A DNA stretch of 36,776 nucleotides from Minisyncoccota bacterium. GTDB lineage: Bacteria; Patescibacteriota; Minisyncoccia; Phycocordibacterales; Phycocordibacteraceae. The DNA is taken from NCBI GenBank assembly GCA_035718415.1, contig DASTHB010000019.1:1-36776 (forward strand), written 5' to 3'. The position numbers were made by a program, and so were the translations under genes. A model generated the notes under the pieces. It was not told the DNA's origin. It worked only from the letters and a program-made list of their open reading frames with translations, and did not search any database. Positions 5,111-36,116 of the stretch are shown piece by piece (the first letter of the stretch is position 1; every line of letters starts with the position of its first letter).

Positions 5111-5506
5111 TTACTTAGTTTCCTTGATAGTTTTGATCCCGATGTTGAAAAAGACCAGGGCCAAGAGAGCAAAGAATATGATGAAAATTTCTCCAATTCC
5201 TGCCCAGCCGTCGCCTGTCCAATCGTGTAAGAACCAATAGATAGTAATACCGATACTGCCGAGGACGCCAATTCCACCTCCGATCGCAAAAACCCATCCG
5301 ATGATTCTCGTTATAGTACGCGAGAGAGGAGACGCATCATCCATTTTTTGTTTTGAAAAAAACAATCCTAAAAGAAGGCCGCATATAGGACCTATCACCA
5401 GCGACCCGCCGAGACCTATCGTTCGACCAAGATCACTAAGATTCCAGGCGAATATCGGTCCAAGAAACAACCCTAATAGCACCCAAAAAAGTATTTTCGA
5501 ATTCAT
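5111..5506 (-). CDS. Hypothetical polytopic membrane protein (131 aa, about 4 TM helices) in an AT-richer patch
   Basis: Internal Met (MNSKILFWVLLGLFLGPIF) of track ORF 5111-5569. A TATAAT (5518-5513) lies 6 nt upstream of this ATG. The sequence is visibly more AT-rich than its neighbours. Confidence 0.6.
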   Translation of the reverse strand: MNSKILFWVLLGLFLGPIFAWNLSDLGRTIGLGGSLVIGPICGLLLGLFFSKQKMDDASPLSRTITRIIGWVFAIGGGIGVLGSIGITIYWFLHDWTGDGWAGIGEIFIIFFALLALVFFNIGIKTIKETK

Positions 5507-5512
5507 AGGAAA

Positions 5513-5518
5513 ATTATA
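5513..5518 (-). promoter_or_regulatory. -10 hexamer TATAAT located 6 nt upstream of the ATG at 5506
   Basis: The minus strand reads GCGGTATAATTTTCCT-ATG. Confidence 0.4.
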
Positions 5519-5590
5519 CCGCATATGAGTCTCCCGAGCGGGCGCCACCCAATCACGAGGAAAACGCACTAACGGTGCTCATGGGCGCGC

Positions 5591-5596
5591 TATACT
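5591..5596 (+). promoter_or_regulatory. -10 hexamer TATACT located 9 nt upstream of the pilB ATG
   Basis: The sequence reads GCGCTATACTTTAGCCAAT-ATG, with no Shine-Dalgarno sequence. Confidence 0.45.
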
Positions 5597-5605
5597 TTAG
5601 CCAAT

Positions 5606-7354
5606 ATGCACGTTTCAGAAGGCGAGCTGAAAGAATTCATTGCCGACTCCGGCCTTGTCGCTAAGAAAGAGCTTGATGATGCGGTCGAGGAAGCGGCGCG
5701 GCGCAAGCAATCCTTGGGCGACATCCTGGTGTCGCGCGGTCTCATCACCGAAGACGCGCTCCGACGCATCCAGGCGTACGTGCTCGGCATCCCGTTCGTG
5801 AACCTGCGGGACCACCGCATACCTATAGAAGTGCTCGCGCTCATCCCGGAACCTATCGCGCGCACGCACAACATCATCGCATTCAAGAAGGAAGGCGACT
5901 CCCTCGAAGTCGCCATGCTCGACGTCGAGGACCTCGCCTCGATCGACTCCGTGCGGAAGAAGACCGGCCTCAAGATACAGGCGCGCCTCACCGACACGGA
6001 AAGCATCAAGTTCGCGCTTCAGCAGTACCAGAAATCCCTGAAAGACGAGTTCGGGGACATCATCATGGAAGAGGCAGGGAAGATTCACCTTGTCGATGAG
6101 AACGCGAAAGACCTGTCCGGGGAAGACCTGAAGCAGATGGCGGAAGAGCTCCCCATCGTCCGCATCGTCGACACGCTTCTGCGCCATGCCATTTCCCAGG
6201 GCGCGTCCGACATCCACATCGAGCAGATGGAAGACCAGGTCTTGGTGCGCTATCGCATCGACGGCGTGCTCCACGATGCGATGAATCTCCCCAAAAGCGC
6301 CGGGCCGGGACTCGTCGCGCGCATCAAGGTGCTCTCGAACCTGAAGCTCGACGAGAAGCGGCTGCCGCAGGACGGCCGCTTCAAGATGGTAACGGAAGCC
6401 GACAAGGTGTCGTTCCGCGTTTCCATACTTCCCACGTTCTTCGGCGAGAAGATCGTCATGCGGCTTCTCCGCGAGACCGGCGAGGGATTCACCATGGAAG
6501 CGCTCGGTATTCACGGCTATAACCTCGAGCACATCCATCACGCGCTCAAACAGACGACCGGCATCATCCTCGTGTCGGGACCCACGGGCTCCGGCAAGAC
6601 GACGACGCTCTATACGATGCTCGATATCCTCAACCAGCCGGACGTGAACATCTCGACCATCGAGGACCCGATCGAGTACCAAATGAAACGCATCAATCAG
6701 ACGCAGGTGAACGCCGACATCGGCTTCACGTTCGCGAACGGATTGCGTTCGCTCGTCCGCCAGGACCCGGACATCATCATGGTCGGCGAGATCCGCGATA
6801 ACGAGACGGCATCGCTTGCCATAAACGCCGCGCTCACGGGGCACCTCGTGCTTTCGACCATACACACGAACAGCGCTGCCGGCGCGATACCTCGCCTCAT
6901 GGACATGGGCGTCGAGCCGTTCCTTCTCGTGTCGACCATCCGCGTCATCATCGGCCAGCGCCTCGTCCGCAAGCTCTGCCCGACGAAGGAAGGCTATACC
7001 CTCGACAAGACCGCGCGTGCGAAGATCGGCACCGACGAGCAATTCCACGTCGCGTACCAGGCGCTCCTCGATGAGAAGCTCGTCCCGAAGGAAACGTCGC
7101 TCGATAAGATACAGTTCTTCCGCCCCACGGCGTCGGCAGAATGCGAAGACGGGTACAAAGGCCGCATCGGCATCCATGAGGTGCTCGCCGTCTCTCCGGC
7201 GATACGCGACATCATCATCCACGAGAGCACCTCGGACGCCATCGAAGCGGAGGCGAGGAAGGAAGGCATGCTCACCATGTTCGAAGACGGCCTTTATAAG
7301 GCGGCCCGCGGCATCACGTCGATCGAGGAAGTGCTCCGCGCCGTGAGCGAATAA
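5606..7354 (+). CDS. pilB: Type IV pilus assembly / type II secretion ATPase, GspE/PilB family
   Basis: The N-terminal T2SSE_N-like domain includes LGDILVSRGLITEDAL...IPEPIARTHNIIAF. Walker A is SGPTGSGKTTTLY, Walker B is DPDIIMVGEIRD, and the His box is GHLVLSTIHTN. Confidence 0.93.
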   Translation: MHVSEGELKEFIADSGLVAKKELDDAVEEAARRKQSLGDILVSRGLITEDALRRIQAYVLGIPFVNLRDHRIPIEVLALIPEPIARTHNIIAFKKEGDSLEVAMLDVEDLASIDSVRKKTGLKIQARLTDTESIKFALQQYQKSLKDEFGDIIMEEAGKIHLVDENAKDLSGEDLKQMAEELPIVRIVDTLLRHAISQGASDIHIEQMEDQVLVRYRIDGVLHDAMNLPKSAGPGLVARIKVLSNLKLDEKRLPQDGRFKMVTEADKVSFRVSILPTFFGEKIVMRLLRETGEGFTMEALGIHGYNLEHIHHALKQTTGIILVSGPTGSGKTTTLYTMLDILNQPDVNISTIEDPIEYQMKRINQTQVNADIGFTFANGLRSLVRQDPDIIMVGEIRDNETASLAINAALTGHLVLSTIHTNSAAGAIPRLMDMGVEPFLLVSTIRVIIGQRLVRKLCPTKEGYTLDKTARAKIGTDEQFHVAYQALLDEKLVPKETSLDKIQFFRPTASAECEDGYKGRIGIHEVLAVSPAIRDIIIHESTSDAIEAEARKEGMLTMFEDGLYKAARGITSIEEVLRAVSE

Positions 7355-13124: not shown

Positions 13125-14840
13125 ATGTTCCCGCTCCATGAGCCGATGCCCGATGACGTGCGCGCCGAGCTTTCTGCATATGACGACCTGACGGCCGCGC
13201 TTCTGTGGCGGCGCGGCATGAGAACGCGGGGCGACGCGGAGCGGTTCCTTGCGCCCTCGTATGACGATCATCTCCACGACCCGCTCTCGATGACCGATAT
13301 GAAAAAAGCGGCAGTGCGGCTTGCGCGTGCTGTGACCTCGAACGAGCAGATCGCGGTCTGGAGCGATTATGATTGCGACGGCATCCCGGGTGGCGTTCTC
13401 ATGCACGATTTTTTGAAGAAGTGCGGCGCGACGTTCGAGAACTATATTCCGCACCGGCATCTCGAGGGCTATGGAGTGAACGCGAGCGGGGTGGAGAAGT
13501 TGGCCGCGCGCGGCATCACGCTTCTTTTAACGATCGATTCCGGCATCACGGACCTTGAAGCGGTCGCGCGAGCGAACGAGCTCGGCATGGACGTCATCGT
13601 GACCGATCATCATTTGCCGGGAGCGGAACTGCCTCCGGCCTTCGCGGTCGTCAATCCGAACGCGCGCGCCGATGAGCCGTATCCGTTCAAAGGACTCTGC
13701 GGATCGGGCGTCGCGTGGAAACTCGCGTGCGCGACGCTCGCCGTTTCACCCGAGCTCCGCGCGCGCGTACCGGTCGGCTGGGAGAAGTGGCTCCTCGATA
13801 TGGTCGGGCTCGCGACCATCGCGGACATGGTGCCGCTTTCGGACGAGAACCGCGTGCTCGCAAATTTCGGTCTGCGCGTCATGCGCAAATCGCCGCGCAT
13901 CGGACTTCAGAAATTGCTCCGTGCCTGCCGCGTCGAACAGCGTGCGCTCTCGGAAGATGATGTCGGTTTCATGGTGGCGCCCCGGGTGAACGCCGCAAGC
14001 CGGATGGGAAGCGCCGACGACGCCTTCCGATTGTTCACGACGACGGACGAGTCCGAAGCCGATGCGCTCGCGAAGAAGCTCGAGGCGGCGAATCGAAAGC
14101 GCAAAGCGGAGGCCGGAGCCATCACGCGCGCCGTCCATGCGCGGCTCAAGGAGCGCGAGCTGCGGAGCGTCATCGCGCTCGGGGATCCCGAGTGGCGCCC
14201 CGCGCTGCTCGGACTCGTCGCGAATACGATCGCCGATGAGTACGAACGGCCGGTCTTCTTGTGGGGCCGGGAAGGGAATAATAGTTTGAAGGGATCGGTA
14301 CGCAGCTCAACCGTGCACGCGCTCGAGCTCATGCGCGCTGCTGAGAACATCTTCGCGGATTTCGGCGGCCACGCCGCCGCCGGCGGTTTCACCGTGCTCG
14401 AAACGGAAATACATTTCCTCGAAGACCGGCTGGTCGCGGCGCATGAGCGGTTGTCCGCCTCCGGACGCGTGAGCGATTCGCTCATGCTGCGCGCAGATGC
14501 GATCATCGATATAGCCGAAGCCACCGGCACGATGCTCAAGCACATGGAACGCCTCTCCCCGTTCGGTATGGAGAATCCGAAGCCTTTGTTTCTGGTCCGC
14601 GACGCCCTGGTGAGCTCCGTTTCGCGCTTTGGAAAGAGCGATGAGCATTTGAAGCTTCGCTTCGATGCCGGCGGTCTTGCCGTGGACGGCGTCGCATTCT
14701 TCGCGAAAGGTGCGCTCGCGAGGACCGCTGCGTCGCTCCACCCGGGCTCGAAGGCGCAGGTGCTCGCGCATCTCGAACGCGACTCCTTTTCGCGCGGCAC
14801 ACCGGTGCGATTGCGCCTTGTCGATATCCGCGTAGCATAA
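13125..14840 (+). CDS. recJ: Single-stranded-DNA-specific exonuclease RecJ
   Basis: Internal Met (MFPLHEP) of track ORF 12942-14840. The DHH motifs are VWSDYDCDGI, TIDSGI and IVTDHH. The DHHA1 region is FGGHAAAGG. Confidence 0.9.
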   Translation: MFPLHEPMPDDVRAELSAYDDLTAALLWRRGMRTRGDAERFLAPSYDDHLHDPLSMTDMKKAAVRLARAVTSNEQIAVWSDYDCDGIPGGVLMHDFLKKCGATFENYIPHRHLEGYGVNASGVEKLAARGITLLLTIDSGITDLEAVARANELGMDVIVTDHHLPGAELPPAFAVVNPNARADEPYPFKGLCGSGVAWKLACATLAVSPELRARVPVGWEKWLLDMVGLATIADMVPLSDENRVLANFGLRVMRKSPRIGLQKLLRACRVEQRALSEDDVGFMVAPRVNAASRMGSADDAFRLFTTTDESEADALAKKLEAANRKRKAEAGAITRAVHARLKERELRSVIALGDPEWRPALLGLVANTIADEYERPVFLWGREGNNSLKGSVRSSTVHALELMRAAENIFADFGGHAAAGGFTVLETEIHFLEDRLVAAHERLSASGRVSDSLMLRADAIIDIAEATGTMLKHMERLSPFGMENPKPLFLVRDALVSSVSRFGKSDEHLKLRFDAGGLAVDGVAFFAKGALARTAASLHPGSKAQVLAHLERDSFSRGTPVRLRLVDIRVA

Positions 14841-14844
14841 CCGT

Positions 14845-15261
14845 ATGCGTTACACGATCAATGCCGATGGGGGAGCGCGCGGCAATCCGGGGCCCGCGGG
14901 CGCGGGCGCGGTCGTTAAGGATGAGAGGGGACGCATCGTCGCCTCCATCTCCGAGTTCCTCGGCCATGCGACGAATAACGTCGCTGAGTACACGGCGCTC
15001 GTGAGCGCGTTCGATGCGCTTCTCGCGGAACTTCAGGACGCGGCGAAGCATGCGGACGTCGCCGTATTCATGGACAGCAAGCTGGTCATCGAGCAGATGA
15101 AGGGCGCCTGGAAAGTCCGGCATCCGAACATGAAGCCGCTCCAAGCCCGCGCAGCAGAGTCGGCGCGCGCGTTCAAGTCCGTCTCGTTCATGCACATTCC
15201 GCGCGAAAGAAATGCAGAGGCGGATGCGCTTGCGAATGAAGCGATGGACCGCGGCTCATGA
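14845..15261 (+). CDS. rnhA: Ribonuclease HI family protein
   Basis: Motifs are INADGGARGNPGPAGAG, TNNVAEYTAL, FMDSKLV and NAEADALAN, which fit the DEDD pattern. It starts 4 nt after the recJ stop. Confidence 0.85.
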   Translation: MRYTINADGGARGNPGPAGAGAVVKDERGRIVASISEFLGHATNNVAEYTALVSAFDALLAELQDAAKHADVAVFMDSKLVIEQMKGAWKVRHPNMKPLQARAAESARAFKSVSFMHIPRERNAEADALANEAMDRGS

Positions 15262-16757
15262 CGGCGCTCATTTCAGCGGTCGCTGGACTCGCGAGCGGGA
15301 TATTCATCCGCTCGCTTTTTGTTTTCGGGTGGCCGGTACCGGTATTTCTCGGGATCTTGGCTGCGATGTTCACCATCGCGTACCGGCATGCGCCGCGCTT
15401 GTCGTATCTCTTCTCAGCGCTTTTCATTTCCTTCGCCGCGCTCGGCATGCTCCGCACGATCGGCGCGGACGCGCCATTGCCGGCTGATTTTTCTCGCGAC
15501 GTCGGCAACCGAGTTTCGTATGAGGGCGTCGTCATGCGCGATGCCGATGTCCGCGACGCCACGGAGCGTATCGCGGTGCGCGTGCGGTCAGGCGCATCTT
15601 CGGTCGGCATGCTCGTCGTCACGGCGCGGGATGAAAGCGTCCGTGTCGGCGACACCGTTCGCATACGCGGCACGCTCGACATCCCTGAATCGTTCATGGA
15701 TGACAACGGCCGAACATTCCGCTACGACCGCTATCTCCAAAGCGCCGGCATCAGGTACGTGCTTAATTACGCGTCGCTCTCCGTCGTAACGCCGGCGCCG
15801 TGGTACTCGCTCCCATCCGCGTTGTCGCGCGCGAACCGATCCTTCGTTCGCGGCGTCCAGGCGGCGCTCCCCGAACCGCACGCATCGCTTGCAAGCGGCA
15901 TCGTCATCGGCGGGAAGTCTGGGCTTGGCCGCGAACTCCAGGATGAATTCGTGCGCAGCGGCCTCATTCAGATCGTGGTCCTGTCCGGCTATAACGTCAT
16001 GGTCGTCGCGGAATGGGTGATGCTCGTGCTCGCGCGCTTCGCGCTTCCGCGCCGCGCGACTGCCGTCGTCGGCGCGCTTGCGCTTCTTCTTTTCCTCGGT
16101 CTCGCGGGTGGTGGTTCGACCGCCGTCCGGGCGTCCATCATGGCGCTCATCGCGCTCTATGCTCGAGCGACGGGGAAGACATACGCTGCCGGACGAGCGC
16201 TTGCGGTCGCCGTCGTCATCATGCTTCTTCTGAATCCGCTTTATCTCGTATTCGATCCTGGTTTCGGGCTTTCCGTCGCGGCGACAGCCGGACTCATCTG
16301 GTTCGCCGACCCGCTGGCATCATTCCTGTCCCGATTCATATCGGCCCGGTTCTGGCGCGACGCATTAGCAACGACGCTCGCGGCTCAGATGGCCGTGCTG
16401 CCGCTGCTCCTCTATGACACGGGCGTTCTCTCCTTCGCCGCTCTTCCCGCCAACCTGCTCGTGCTTCCCGTCGTACCGCTCGCCATGGGTATGTCTGCGC
16501 TCGCGGGCCTCACCGGCATGGCGTCCTCGCTTCTTCTCCCCACGCTTGCTCCGGTCCTCGGACTTCCGGCATATGCCGCCACAAGCTATGTGCTTTCCGT
16601 GGCCCATTTCGCATCGAACTTCGACCTGAGCGCGCTCATTATCCCGCCGATCCCGTTCGCCTACGTCATGCTCGCGTATGCATTCATGGCCGCGGTATGC
16701 ATCTATGGACCCCGTGGTATGCTCAAAATATCACCGCTATGGCAGCGCTCCACGTAA
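15258..16757 (+). CDS. comEC: DNA internalisation channel protein ComEC/Rec2 (DUF4131 plus Competence domain only, no nuclease domain)
   Basis: It is a polytopic protein of 499 aa. The signature is ASGIVIGGKSGLGRELQDEFVRSGLIQIVVLSGYNV. Its start overlaps the rnhA stop (ATGA at 15258-15261). The protein ends right after the last TM block, without a metallo-beta-lactamase domain. Confidence 0.85.
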   Translation: MTALISAVAGLASGIFIRSLFVFGWPVPVFLGILAAMFTIAYRHAPRLSYLFSALFISFAALGMLRTIGADAPLPADFSRDVGNRVSYEGVVMRDADVRDATERIAVRVRSGASSVGMLVVTARDESVRVGDTVRIRGTLDIPESFMDDNGRTFRYDRYLQSAGIRYVLNYASLSVVTPAPWYSLPSALSRANRSFVRGVQAALPEPHASLASGIVIGGKSGLGRELQDEFVRSGLIQIVVLSGYNVMVVAEWVMLVLARFALPRRATAVVGALALLLFLGLAGGGSTAVRASIMALIALYARATGKTYAAGRALAVAVVIMLLLNPLYLVFDPGFGLSVAATAGLIWFADPLASFLSRFISARFWRDALATTLAAQMAVLPLLLYDTGVLSFAALPANLLVLPVVPLAMGMSALAGLTGMASSLLLPTLAPVLGLPAYAATSYVLSVAHFASNFDLSALIIPPIPFAYVMLAYAFMAAVCIYGPRGMLKISPLWQRST

Positions 16758-17152
16758 TCGCCGTCATGCTTACGCTCGCCGCCGTGCTGTACGCCGATGA
16801 GCAGGGGCTCCTGTGGTATCTCGGCAAGCGCGAGCATCTCGATGAGGAGCGCCTGCGCCTCCTTCATCGCATCGTCTCGGCAGGACTCCTCGTCATCGTC
16901 GCGTCGGGCGCGAGCATGGTGCTCCGACGGCCCGAGGCTTATGTGAGCAATCCGATCTTCCTCCTTAAGATGGTGCTCGTCGGGGCGCTTGTCGTAAACA
17001 GCGTCTTTATCGGGAAGATATCGGCGCTCGCGTCGGCGGGTCCGTACCGCGGACTCTCGGCGGTACAGCGGCACGCCATCCGGTTTTCAGCCGGCATATC
17101 ATTCATCGGTTGGGCAGGGGCCCTCCTGTGCGGAGCGTTAATCGGGGATTAG
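16739..17152 (+). CDS. Hypothetical membrane protein (about 4 TM helices)
   Basis: Track ORF 16697-17152. The start is uncertain and could be 16697 or the internal Met at 16739, and either overlaps the comEC 3' end. Hydrophobic segments are ALHVIAVMLTLAAVLY, GLLVIVASGASMVL, MVLVGALVVNSVFIG and ISFIGWAGALLCGALI. Confidence 0.5.
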   Translation: MAALHVIAVMLTLAAVLYADEQGLLWYLGKREHLDEERLRLLHRIVSAGLLVIVASGASMVLRRPEAYVSNPIFLLKMVLVGALVVNSVFIGKISALASAGPYRGLSAVQRHAIRFSAGISFIGWAGALLCGALIGD

Positions 17153-17742
17153 CGCATCGCCTCGTCGAAACGCTTTTCGATCACGCTCCAATTCATGTTG
17201 GCGAGGAAGGCGTCCACGTAATTCTTCTTCTCGGCCGGTACGTAGTCCACCATATAGGCGTGTTCCCACATGTCGAGCGCGAGAATGATAGGAAGGCCCG
17301 CGAGCTGACCGAGCTCATGATCGTTCACGAAAACCGTGTGGAGCGTCTTGGCGCGAGTGTCGGCGTAGACGACGACCCAGCCCGTACCTCGGGTGCCGGC
17401 GACCTCCTTTATATGTGCGATGAAATTCTCGCCGCTGCCGTATTTCTCCGCCGCTGCCTTCGCGAGCGCTGATTCGGGACTGCCGCCCTTCTCTCCCTCG
17501 AACTGTTCGAAGTAATACTCATGCATGCGCATGCCGTCGAACTCGAACGCAAGGCGCCGACGCAGCTCGGCGATAGCGTACTTGCCGCCCTCATCATCCG
17601 TTTTTCCGTATGCGGCGATGGTCGATAAGACGAGATTCACATGCTTCACATAGCCTTCGTAGAGCGCGAGATGGACCTTGATCTGCTTCTCAGAGAGGCC
17701 TTCAAGCGCCGGAAGGTCGAATTTCTTTGCGGTATAGGTCAT
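17149..17742 (-). CDS. Fe/Mn-family superoxide dismutase (197 aa)
   Basis: Internal Met (MTYTAKKFDLPALEG) of track ORF 17149-18018. The C-terminal signature is LALDMWEHAYMVDY. GWVVVY is also present. Confidence 0.85.
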   Translation of the reverse strand: MTYTAKKFDLPALEGLSEKQIKVHLALYEGYVKHVNLVLSTIAAYGKTDDEGGKYAIAELRRRLAFEFDGMRMHEYYFEQFEGEKGGSPESALAKAAAEKYGSGENFIAHIKEVAGTRGTGWVVVYADTRAKTLHTVFVNDHELGQLAGLPIILALDMWEHAYMVDYVPAEKKNYVDAFLANMNWSVIEKRFDEAMR

Positions 17743-17758
17743 AGGGCAATACTGTACC

Positions 17759-18232
17759 ATGGGCGCAAGAATGTTCCGTGAACTGACAACGGGATACCTT
17801 CTTATTCTTTGCGCGCTTCTCTTGGGAGCGCTCTTCCTCATCCATGCCGCGATCCCTCGTGACGACACCATGACGATATTCCGGTCGGGTAAAGGCAAAG
17901 GAGCGCTTATCGAGACGCCGTACGGCGCTCTGCTCGTCGATCCCGGCCCCGACGCTTCGGTACTCCGTGTTCTCGGAGCATCGCTGCCTCCCTGGGAGCG
18001 GCATCTCGCCGCTATCATCCTTTCAGGAACGCCGAGCGGGAGCGCTGAGCGTCTGCTCGATCGTTATACGGCGGGTTCGGTCCTCCGATTCGGCGCGAAC
18101 GGATTGCCGTATGGGAACGAAGTTCGCTTCGCGGACGGGATAACGGTCCGCGTGGATGCGCCCGGCCTCTTTTCCGTCCTGTCCCGCGCGATATCGTCCA
18201 CTACGGACACGGGAACCTTTCTTCTTAAATGA
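17759..18232 (+). CDS. Membrane-anchored protein resembling the ComEC C-terminal metallo-beta-lactamase domain, with the HxHxDH motif lost
   Basis: The N-terminal TM helix is GYLLILCALLLGALFLI. TIFRSGKGKGALIETPYGALLVDPGP resembles the ComEC MBL start (FLDVGQGDaxLIxTPxGxxxLIDxG). The position where THxHxDHxGG is expected reads AIILSGTPSGSAE. Confidence 0.5.
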   Translation: MGARMFRELTTGYLLILCALLLGALFLIHAAIPRDDTMTIFRSGKGKGALIETPYGALLVDPGPDASVLRVLGASLPPWERHLAAIILSGTPSGSAERLLDRYTAGSVLRFGANGLPYGNEVRFADGITVRVDAPGLFSVLSRAISSTTDTGTFLLK

Positions 18233-18234
18233 AA

Positions 18235-18256
18235 AACGCCGGGATTGCCCGGCGTT
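18235..18256. terminator. Bidirectional terminator between the 17759-18232 gene and rpmB
   Basis: AACGCCGGG (18235-18243) pairs with CCCGGCGTT (18248-18256) around the loop ATTG. An A-run lies on the left, which reads as a T-run on the minus strand after rpmB. CTTT lies on the right. Confidence 0.7.
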
Positions 18257-18269
18257 CTTTCGACCCGCG

Positions 18270-34400: not shown

Positions 34401-36116
34401 TTAATAGGGAAGATCGACGGTTTTCGCGAGCTCCGCAAGCGATGTCACGCCGTCGAGCGCCTTCAGTATGCCGTCCTGGGCCATCGTGAGGTACCCTTGG
34501 GTCGCCGCGTGCTTCGCGATATCGGACTCGAGCGGATTGTCGCGCAAGAACGAACCGAGCGCATCGTCCATGAATATCGCCTCATAGATGCCGATGCGGC
34601 CCTTGTAGCCGGTGCCGCCGCTCTCTTCAAGCGGTTCCCATACGGTCTCTACTTTCTGCGGCGCGAGCGACTTGTCCGCAAGCGGCGCGAACACCTTCTC
34701 TATCATCGCCTTTTCCGCGTCCGTCAGCGCGCGCTCTTTCTTTTTATCCGGATCGAGCTTGCGCACGAGGCGCTGCGCCATCGAGACGGTTATTGCCGAG
34801 CCGAAAGATTTCGGATCGACGCCGAGGTCGACGAGGCGAGGGTACGTGCCTGCCGCGTTGTTCGTGTGGAGCGTGGAGAAGACGAAATGCCCCGTGAGCG
34901 CGGCCTGTATGGCGATGTCCGCGGTCTCGCCATCGCGTATCTCACCGACCATGATGACATCAGGGTCCTGCCGCACGATGGACTTCAGTCCGTCCGCGAA
35001 CGTGTATTTTTCCGGCACGACCTGCGTCTGCACGATGCCGTCGATGTGGTATTCGATCGGGTCCTCGATAGTGATTATCTTGATCTCGGGTGAATAAATC
35101 TCCCGCAGGAACGAATACAGCGTCGTCGTCTTGCCGGAACCCGTCGGTCCGGTCGTGAGAAGCATGCCGTTCGTTCGCCGGATCTCCTTTTCAAGCCGAG
35201 CGAGAAGTTTCGGATGAATACCAAGCTCCTTGTAGGAGACCGTTATCGATTCCGGATCGAGAATGCGCATCACGATAGATTCCCCGTAATTGCCCGGGAT
35301 GAACGAAACGCGCACCTCGATCTCCTTGCTCTTGCGAGTCACGGTGAAGCGCCCATCTTGCGCGCGGTTTGAGATATTGAGCTTCACGCCGGCCAAGAGC
35401 TTTATGCGCGAGGTGAGTTGGCGCGAGGTCTCTTCGTCGAAGAAGAACACGTCGGTCAGAATGCCGTCGATGCGGAAACGCAGACGCGTCCGCGATTCCT
35501 CGGGTTCGATATGTATATCCGATGAATGGAGCGCAAAAGAGCCCGTGAGGACGGTCTCGAAGATGCGCGTGACCCGGTCGAGAAGCTTCAGTTTCGATGC
35601 CGACTCAAGCTCCGCGCGAATGGCGGCGAGGCGGTCCGCCGACGACATCGTCTCCATGACGCTATCGGAAACGGAAAGCTGCCCCGCGCGGGATTCGGCG
35701 GCGAACGAGAGGTCATGATAGCGCGTAAGCACCTTCTCGAGGCTCTTTTTCGACACGAGGAATTTCGCGATGGAGAAACCGCGCTTCTCGAGGTCCTCGA
35801 GGAGTTTCGCGAGCGCCGGATTGTTCGGATTATGGATCGCGAGCGATATGTTCTTCGCCGTTTTCACGAAGGCCGCCGCCTCGGCCTCCCGCGCGAGGGG
35901 CTCGGGCACGACGCGCAGCGCTTCACTGTCGATCTCCTGGAGCGAGAGATCGGCATACGTCATCCCGTACTTATCGGAAAGGATCTGGGTCACATCCTCT
36001 TCCTCGCGAGCGCGTATTTCCTCAAGCTTCGTGTCCCCCTTCCCGGTATCAAATGGCAGATCCATATGCGCCCCATCATACCACCCAAGGAGGAGGGCAC
36101 TTGACAAATGGGCCAT
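34401..36116 (-). CDS. Second GspE/PilB-family secretion/pilus ATPase (orphan paralogue)
   Basis: The T2SSE_N-like N-terminal region includes VVPEPLAREAEAAAF. Walker A is TGPTGSGKTTTLY, Walker B is DPDVIMVGEIRD, and the His box is GHFVFSTLHTN. The start at 36116 is supported by TGATATAAT 9 nt upstream. An alternative Met lies at 36065. Confidence 0.9.
   Translation of the reverse strand: MAHLSSALLLGWYDGAHMDLPFDTGKGDTKLEEIRAREEEDVTQILSDKYGMTYADLSLQEIDSEALRVVPEPLAREAEAAAFVKTAKNISLAIHNPNNPALAKLLEDLEKRGFSIAKFLVSKKSLEKVLTRYHDLSFAAESRAGQLSVSDSVMETMSSADRLAAIRAELESASKLKLLDRVTRIFETVLTGSFALHSSDIHIEPEESRTRLRFRIDGILTDVFFFDEETSRQLTSRIKLLAGVKLNISNRAQDGRFTVTRKSKEIEVRVSFIPGNYGESIVMRILDPESITVSYKELGIHPKLLARLEKEIRRTNGMLLTTGPTGSGKTTTLYSFLREIYSPEIKIITIEDPIEYHIDGIVQTQVVPEKYTFADGLKSIVRQDPDVIMVGEIRDGETADIAIQAALTGHFVFSTLHTNNAAGTYPRLVDLGVDPKSFGSAITVSMAQRLVRKLDPDKKKERALTDAEKAMIEKVFAPLADKSLAPQKVETVWEPLEESGGTGYKGRIGIYEAIFMDDALGSFLRDNPLESDIAKHAATQGYLTMAQDGILKALDGVTSLAELAKTVDLPY

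Follow-up and report, generated by a model that had tools for sequence, protein, structure and literature searches.

How does a DNA-uptake channel fare when its gene encodes no nuclease domain, what has become of that domain, and do the genes beside the channel gene take over its task? These questions are raised by a 36,776-nucleotide stretch of DNA (hereafter the window) from a Minisyncoccota bacterium (GenBank assembly GCA_035718415.1, contig DASTHB010000019.1, positions 1 to 36,776), in which recJ and rnhA precede a comEC gene without the C-terminal metallo-beta-lactamase (MBL) nuclease domain, and a 157-residue open reading frame (ORF) lies downstream, beyond a small membrane ORF and an oppositely oriented superoxide dismutase gene, sod (Table 1). 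The initial annotation read this arrangement as a split of comEC followed by catalytic decay of the nuclease, with RecJ as a possible substitute. Our studies suggest a different history, which we consider likely: a two-gene ComEC has at a late stage lost its nuclease subunit, the remnant of that subunit is kept by selection as a non-catalytic accessory of the channel, and recJ and rnhA are conserved neighbors. The assembly comprises 457 kb in 84 contigs, of which the window is number 19, and its completeness is 89%. Loci whose VirB4 is 89–93% identical belong mostly to genomes labeled Candidatus Kaiserbacteria, Paceibacterota or Parcubacteria, which places the organism among Kaiserbacteria-like Patescibacteria. 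All genomes compared are metagenome-assembled genomes, and "absent" here means not found in assemblies of the stated completeness. Gene identities were assigned by Pfam and NCBIfam profile searches.

Taken alone, the 157-aa ORF had no match in Pfam (E up to 1) or NCBIfam, and it is through its relatives that it can be recognized. Homologues were found in 43 of 60 sampled relatives. The intact ones, known from some members of the genus as well as from other families of the order, are 281–293 aa long with one N-terminal transmembrane (TM) helix, carry the motifs GQGD, HPDxDH, TGD, GHHGS and YGHP, pass the Pfam model Lactamase_B, and have as their best solved relatives only ComEC nuclease domains (9ic4, E 2e-34; 30bt, E 3.5e-34). 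A profile built from 13 dead forms only also had ComEC structures as its top PDB matches (30bt, E 1.4e-9; 9ic4, E 2e-9). Positions 11–62 of this profile align with residues 513–563 of the full-length ComEC 30bt, and by this alignment the TM helix of the remnant corresponds to the last TM helix preceding the MBL domain of single-chain ComEC. When the ORF is aligned with its intact relatives, Lys47 stands in place of the Asp of motif I; in motif II, the H-x-D-x-D-H motif of ComEC (defined in PMC12455585), the His has become Gly and the Asp has become Pro, and the second Asp and the His fall inside a 3-residue deletion. The GHHGS and YGHP regions are deleted and the TGD ligand motif is lost as well; about 120 extramembrane residues are left in a protein that lacks some 130 residues. 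The GQGD-like entry motif (GKGKG) and the SGTPSG at the HxHxDH site, both reported initially, hold in this alignment. The continuous alignment to intact relatives and the match of the remnant-only profile to ComEC structures also support the proposed identity of the ORF as a dead ComEC-type MBL: judged by homology, the 157-aa protein is genuinely related to the ComEC nuclease domain, though degenerate and catalytically dead. For annotation, the 150–250-aa "hypothetical proteins" that these genomes encode past comEC and sod are ComEC nuclease remnants.

The channel protein beside this remnant was examined with the same profiles. Its Competence domain (PF03772) scores 144.1 bits against a cut-off of 23, with positions 2–266 of 270 covered, and its N-terminal oligonucleotide/oligosaccharide-binding (OB) fold (DUF4131, PF13567) scores 46.7 bits against 31.6. 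The chain stops 16 residues past the Competence domain, has no Lactamase_B match and falls short of the three-domain equivalog TIGR00361 (58.1 bits versus a cut-off of 190.05), which confirms the earlier statement that this ComEC lacks a C-terminal MBL nuclease. The Competence domain is present in a single copy in the whole assembly, and neither a second, intact full-length comEC nor a ComEC-type MBL was found elsewhere in it. Orthologues of comEC were present in 55 of 60 sampled relatives, in frames of about 450–630 aa, none of which could hold a fused MBL. A ratio of nonsynonymous to synonymous substitution rates (dN/dS) of 0.085 in the closest relative pair (G014/G005) points to strong purifying selection on the channel gene, whose constraint equals that of housekeeping genes. 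Because DprA (contig 30), a ComEA-like HHH_3 protein (contig 39) and three pilus-type ATPases (two of them in the window, a third T2SSE ATPase on contig 78) are present, the remaining uptake machinery seems complete.

Some relatives depart from this pattern. In one locus (L050, positions 5286–6811) comEC is broken into frames of 256 and 273 aa, with one TGA, and in three close relatives (L061, L068 and L076) it is gone from the rnhA-sod junction. Two of these three genomes have no Competence domain anywhere in the assembly; the third has a divergent comEC elsewhere, a 488-aa frame 28% identical to the ComEC of the window, and is probably the genome G009, whose comEC lies at nearly the same place.

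The separation of channel and nuclease did not arise in this genome. In a sample of 90 genomes drawn across Patescibacteria, outside this order, no fused nuclease domain was found (0/90), and a separate ComEC-type MBL gene of about 275–310 aa, mostly directly downstream of comEC, was found in 72. ComEC itself was present in 89 of 91 phylum-level genomes, in open frames of at most 576 aa. The split, initially taken as an event in this lineage's comEC, is a phylum-wide state, and the two-gene ComEC is the normal one for the phylum, in agreement with the reported absence of the fused three-domain ComEC from the Candidate Phyla Radiation (CPR) (Meheust 2019, PMC6744442). The searchable literature, in which we found no description of the separate MBL gene, states only that the fused form is absent from CPR (PMC6744442). 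At least 2,595 protein clusters are of the separate-MBL type, labeled "MBL fold metallo-hydrolase" or "competence protein ComEC". A "nuclease-less ComEC" in CPR should not be read as nuclease loss before the neighboring gene has been checked, and Patescibacteria offer one answer to the puzzle of the nuclease-less ComEC, namely the domain as a separate, membrane-anchored protein.

In the same phylum sample, 18 of the 90 genomes, two of which have no ComEC either, gave no ComEC-type MBL at E 1e-12. Whole families are among them (f35, f38 and f43, with 0/4, 0/2 and 0/3, respectively), and in these 18 genomes the nuclease subunit may have been lost or have decayed independently on further occasions. 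The comEC matches of G063, G117, G092 (family f31) and G100 contain in-frame TGA, TAG or TAA codons, which suggests an alternative genetic code or broken genes.

The loss of the nuclease, as distinct from its separation, can be followed through a graded alignment that runs from a full-length, ligand-free protein (G012, 286 aa) through forms of 236, 232, 230, 193 and 190 aa to a group of 170 to 152 aa that includes the ORF of the window, the remnants having been shortened by internal deletions. What all forms still share is the anchor, the initial beta-strands, a pair of helices and a C-terminal ISSSTP-G-Y strand corresponding to the one that ends the intact domain. In a tree of RecJ from 32 syntenic loci, a 23-member clade (Shimodaira-Hasegawa-like approximate likelihood ratio test, SH-aLRT, 96) has a dead second gene in 16 members and none in the other 7; all 8 intact copies lie outside this clade, and G012 represents a separate inactivation. 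On the evidence of this alignment and tree, the decay of the nuclease is clade-wide within Kaiserbacteria and not private to one genome. The clade thus contains a graded natural series, from intact through dead and half-deleted to absent, in which the channel stays strongly selected. The series marks the parts of the nuclease domain that would be kept for non-catalytic reasons (the TM anchor, the first beta-sheet and the last strand), and it supplies matched genomes for finding a replacement nuclease.

A gene in this state might be no more than a functionless relic heading for deletion, still open only for lack of time, beside a ComEC that works or decays without it. The pattern of substitution bears on this directly. 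Our dN/dS values come mainly from one unsaturated pair, G014/G005 (dS about 0.7–0.8). In this pair, dN/dS is 0.20 at dS 0.79 for the remnant and 0.08–0.12 for pgk, recJ, rnhA, sod and the M50 protease gene, so that constraint on the remnant is relaxed about twofold, yet clearly present. In more distant pairs, the proportion of nonsynonymous differences in the remnant is 0.27–0.40 versus 0.6–0.8 for synonymous ones. Thirteen positions are invariant across forms that are only 26–42% identical to the copy in the window, and the ORF is open in nearly all genomes despite synonymous saturation between most of them. These findings, along with the strong constraint on comEC, count against a relic awaiting deletion.

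Several observations nevertheless weigh against a retained function, and most of them would suit a relic. The remnant is the fastest-evolving gene of the block. Four clade genomes in the RecJ tree keep a syntenic comEC from beside which the remnant has been cleanly deleted, so that in these genomes it is dispensable for the role of ComEC, and two more loci, which lack a complete recJ, also miss it, with sod abutting rpmB; after clean loss, the gap between sod and rpmB is 4–23 nt (L051, L052, L056 and L067). The copy in L060 carries a frameshift and that in G015 an in-frame TGA, and comEC itself is broken or gone from the site in four genomes. Few copies are as eroded as the one in the window, which has lost a further 3 residues at motif II and whose C-terminal motif is degenerate; it may be less constrained than the pair used for dN/dS. 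In an AlphaFold2 model (predicted local distance difference test score, pLDDT, 87.6), finally, a TM helix leads into a beta-sheet and two helices, and the top 50 Foldseek matches of this model all belong to the MBL superfamily, but they are weak (best E 7.5e-4; TM-score 0.35–0.49). Because the alignment behind the model included intact MBLs, which would bias it toward the MBL fold, this result is one of consistency and not proof. The proposal that the 157-aa protein has MBL-fold similarity is upheld by profile homology, while the structural comparison returns MBLs only, and weakly, and Pfam returns nothing. Weighing the selection data against these points, we regard a functionless relic as unlikely. 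Because the remnant has repeatedly been lost, whatever role it has would be minor or conditional.

The frameshifted copy (L030/L060, in genome G029, at about 6788–7304 of L060) consists of ORFs of 86 and 108 aa, and the same genome also misses recJ between the HIT gene and rnhA.

If selection does maintain the remnant, the function need not be the ancestral one. The nuclease domain of single-chain ComEC is kept at the entrance of the channel, to which it contributes, through a small interface with the OB fold (PMC13539106). By analogy, the remnant probably keeps a structural role; that it is a selected non-catalytic subunit docking on the mouth of the ComEC channel is a more specific proposal, which we put forward tentatively and would not yet bet on. 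All 17 remnant-bearing loci, the window included, carry a syntenic comEC, in one case a broken one; because the genomes are related and the sample is small, this co-occurrence is only suggestive. It also bears on the idea that the remnant has taken on a new role apart from DNA uptake, such as that of a small surface protein anchored in the membrane. Purifying selection in the absence of catalytic residues would fit such a role, as would the strongly conserved DAS-[IV]-LRALG...LPPW-x-R block, which is more uniform in dead than in intact forms. The remnant has, however, retained its position downstream of comEC, was never found without syntenic comEC in the loci examined, and has gained no domain or motif, and a role unconnected with uptake seems to us improbable. 

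The tight packing of recJ, rnhA and comEC in the window had suggested another solution, in which the co-transcribed RecJ, with RNase H, degrades the strand after the nuclease has decayed, or in which the operon imports DNA mainly for nucleotide salvage. The described chaining of the three genes is borne out by direct reading of both junctions: the recJ stop codon TAA (14838–14840) is followed by a 4-nt gap and the rnhA ATG at 14845, and the ATGA at 15258–15261 forms the overlap between the end of rnhA and the start of comEC. The gene assignments are also firm, RecJ passing the TIGR00644 equivalog (460 bits versus a cut-off of 396.9) with DHH, DHHA1 and RecJ_OB above threshold, and RnhA matching RNase_H (PF00075) over its full length (41.8 bits versus 25.8) and RVT_3 at 76.9 bits. 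The linkage of the three genes, moreover, is conserved, as the initial annotation had supposed. A tpiA-pgk-(HIT)-recJ-rnhA-comEC-(sod)-MBL-(rpmB)-M50 block is found across the genus, and the recJ-rnhA-comEC order recurs in most other sampled families of the order. In favor of salvage, CPR bacteria lack nucleotide synthesis and DNA scavenging via Com proteins has been proposed for them (PMC6744442, PMC10633639). Nor does the genome contain a homologue of Endonuclease_1, Endonuclease_NS (EndA), SNase or NucA/B that might serve as a replacement nuclease; its remaining MBL genes encode RNase J, a beta-CASP RNase and a small cytoplasmic hydrolase.

Other evidence, however, makes compensation by RecJ or salvage very hard to credit. 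RecJ has neither a signal peptide nor a TM segment and is therefore cytoplasmic, whereas the ComEC nuclease works outside the membrane. The same gene order stands beside intact MBL genes in eight genomes (G027, G020, G026, G035, G053, G051, G037 and G047); recJ and rnhA remain in place where comEC has been lost (L061, L068 and L076); and G029 keeps comEC, yet recJ is missing at the site. Outside the order, none of the 90 phylum genomes had recJ near comEC: the two were separated by more than 30 kb or lay on different contigs. Nor do the tight junctions set these genes apart, ATGA overlaps being frequent in this compact genome and the rnhA-comEC spacing in relatives ranging from overlap up to about 4 kb, and the synteny is a general one, since the block also carries tpiA, pgk, HIT, sod, rpmB and M50 protease genes. 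As for salvage, nucleotide scavenging is an existing hypothesis for CPR that was not borne out in Saccharibacteria, where comEC is required for transformation and not for growth (PMC10633639). Because the spacing varies, recJ and comEC can each be found without the other at the site, the linkage is not seen elsewhere in the phylum and RecJ is not exported, we interpret the linkage as lineage-specific synteny in a compact genome. Because the order occurs beside intact nuclease genes, and because recJ and rnhA stay where comEC has been lost, the linkage predates the decay of the nuclease and provides no compensation for it.

In the reading that we prefer, that of a two-gene ComEC late in losing its nuclease subunit, the first gene, comEC, supplies the OB fold and the membrane channel, and the second normally encodes a protein of about 285 aa with a single TM anchor and, as its outer domain, a ComEC-type MBL nuclease. 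In the Kaiserbacteria clade to which this genome belongs, the second gene has lost all of its metal-ligand motifs and has then, by internal deletions, been reduced to 157–255 aa, the anchor, the N-terminal beta-sheet half and the final strand being left. The remnant would be a type II membrane protein (N-terminus in, C-terminus out) with a small domain at the outer face beside ComEC, where it may shape or guide DNA at the outer mouth of the channel without catalysis. DNA import would go on, the non-imported strand being cut by another nuclease or merely displaced. RecJ and RNase H would act on their usual substrates in the cytoplasm, and recJ and rnhA would be co-transcribed with comEC as a consequence of gene packing and not as a nuclease replacement. 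If the remnant does dock on the channel mouth as a selected subunit, the more tentative proposal above, the clade would represent a natural experiment in which ComEC imports DNA without any ComEC-family nuclease, and strand displacement, or a nuclease family not yet tied to competence, would account for the removal of the second strand.

Known ComEC systems resemble this one in part. The single-chain ComEC/Rec2 proteins (B. subtilis ComEC; Neomoorella ComEC 30bt; nuclease domain 9ic4; TIGR00361) share the OB fold and the Competence domain with it, and the intact second-gene relatives match their nuclease domain (E ~1e-34), including the H-x-D-x-D-H motif; unlike in these proteins, the nuclease domain here is a separate polypeptide and is without metal ligands. 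With the two-gene ComEC of other Patescibacteria the window shares architecture and gene order, but the second gene, usually intact, is here a dead 157-aa remnant. A further parallel is S. pneumoniae ComEC, whose beta-lactamase-like domain is thought to be inactive and has been proposed to have a guide or structural role, the strand being degraded by the membrane nuclease EndA (PMC8579336, PMC12455585). An inactive nuclease domain is retained in both cases, although that of S. pneumoniae is full-length and fused, with EndA as a replacement, whereas that of the window is separate and half deleted, and no EndA-type homologue was found. The DC-profile ComECs, which consist of DUF4131 and Competence only and of which the Helicobacter pylori protein is an example, resemble that of the window in having no nuclease domain in the ComEC chain; unlike in these, the missing domain is encoded next door in this lineage and its decay can be traced stepwise. 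ComECs of this profile make up about half of all ComECs (Pimentel & Zhang 2018), and how nuclease-less ComECs dispose of the non-imported strand is an acknowledged open question (Silale 2021).

Table 1. Features of the window discussed in the text, with their positions and the basis of each assignment.
Feature	Position	Strand	Basis
recJ, single-stranded DNA 5'-3' exonuclease, 571 aa	13125-14840	+	TIGR00644, DHH, DHHA1, RecJ_OB
rnhA, RNase H type 1, 138 aa	14845-15261	+	Pfam RNase_H, RVT_3
comEC, DNA-uptake channel, 499 aa	15258-16757	+	DUF4131 (OB fold, residues 25-171), Competence (residues 216-483)
DUF2214-like small membrane ORF	16739-17152	+	Pfam DUF2214 E 3.4e-6, 27.5 bits, below cut-off
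sod, Fe/Mn superoxide dismutase	17149-17742	-	Sod_Fe_C 73.6 bits
Remnant of ComEC-type MBL nuclease subunit, 157 aa	17759-18232	+	homology series, profile, model
N-terminal TM helix of remnant (predicted), residues 11-31	17789-17851	+	helix in AlphaFold2 model; profile alignment
GKGKG, relic of MBL motif I, residues 44-48	17888-17902	+	alignment: GQGD in intact relatives
SGTPSG, relic of H-x-D-x-D-H metal-binding motif, residues 89-94	18023-18040	+	alignment: T-HPDKDH-IGG in intact relatives
GC-rich hairpin	18231-18261	.	between convergent remnant gene and rpmB
Pilus-type T2SSE ATPase	6140-7339	+	same window as comEC
Pilus-type T2SSE ATPase	34428-35573	-	same window as comEC

The sod gene had been considered a possible insertion between the two ComEC genes. 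All through the genus, as in three further families of the order, it occupies the same position, and it was not found there in other families; it is a long-standing resident and not a recent arrival, and it is not the cause of the comEC split. The small membrane ORF occupies the 392-nt space between comEC and sod, overlapping the 3' end of comEC by 19 nt, or by 61 nt with a start at the ATG at 16697, and that of sod by 4 nt. It had no tblastn counterpart in 20 syntenic loci, in which comEC and sod abut, and this putative gene, a bystander, seems to have been inserted in this genome alone. In the window, tpiA, pgk and the HIT gene lie upstream of recJ, and rpmB and the M50 protease gene lie past the remnant gene. 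The hairpin between the remnant gene and rpmB has a free energy of -19.7 kcal/mol (z -3.15 versus shuffles) with an A-run and a T-run at its flanks, and resembles a bidirectional terminator.

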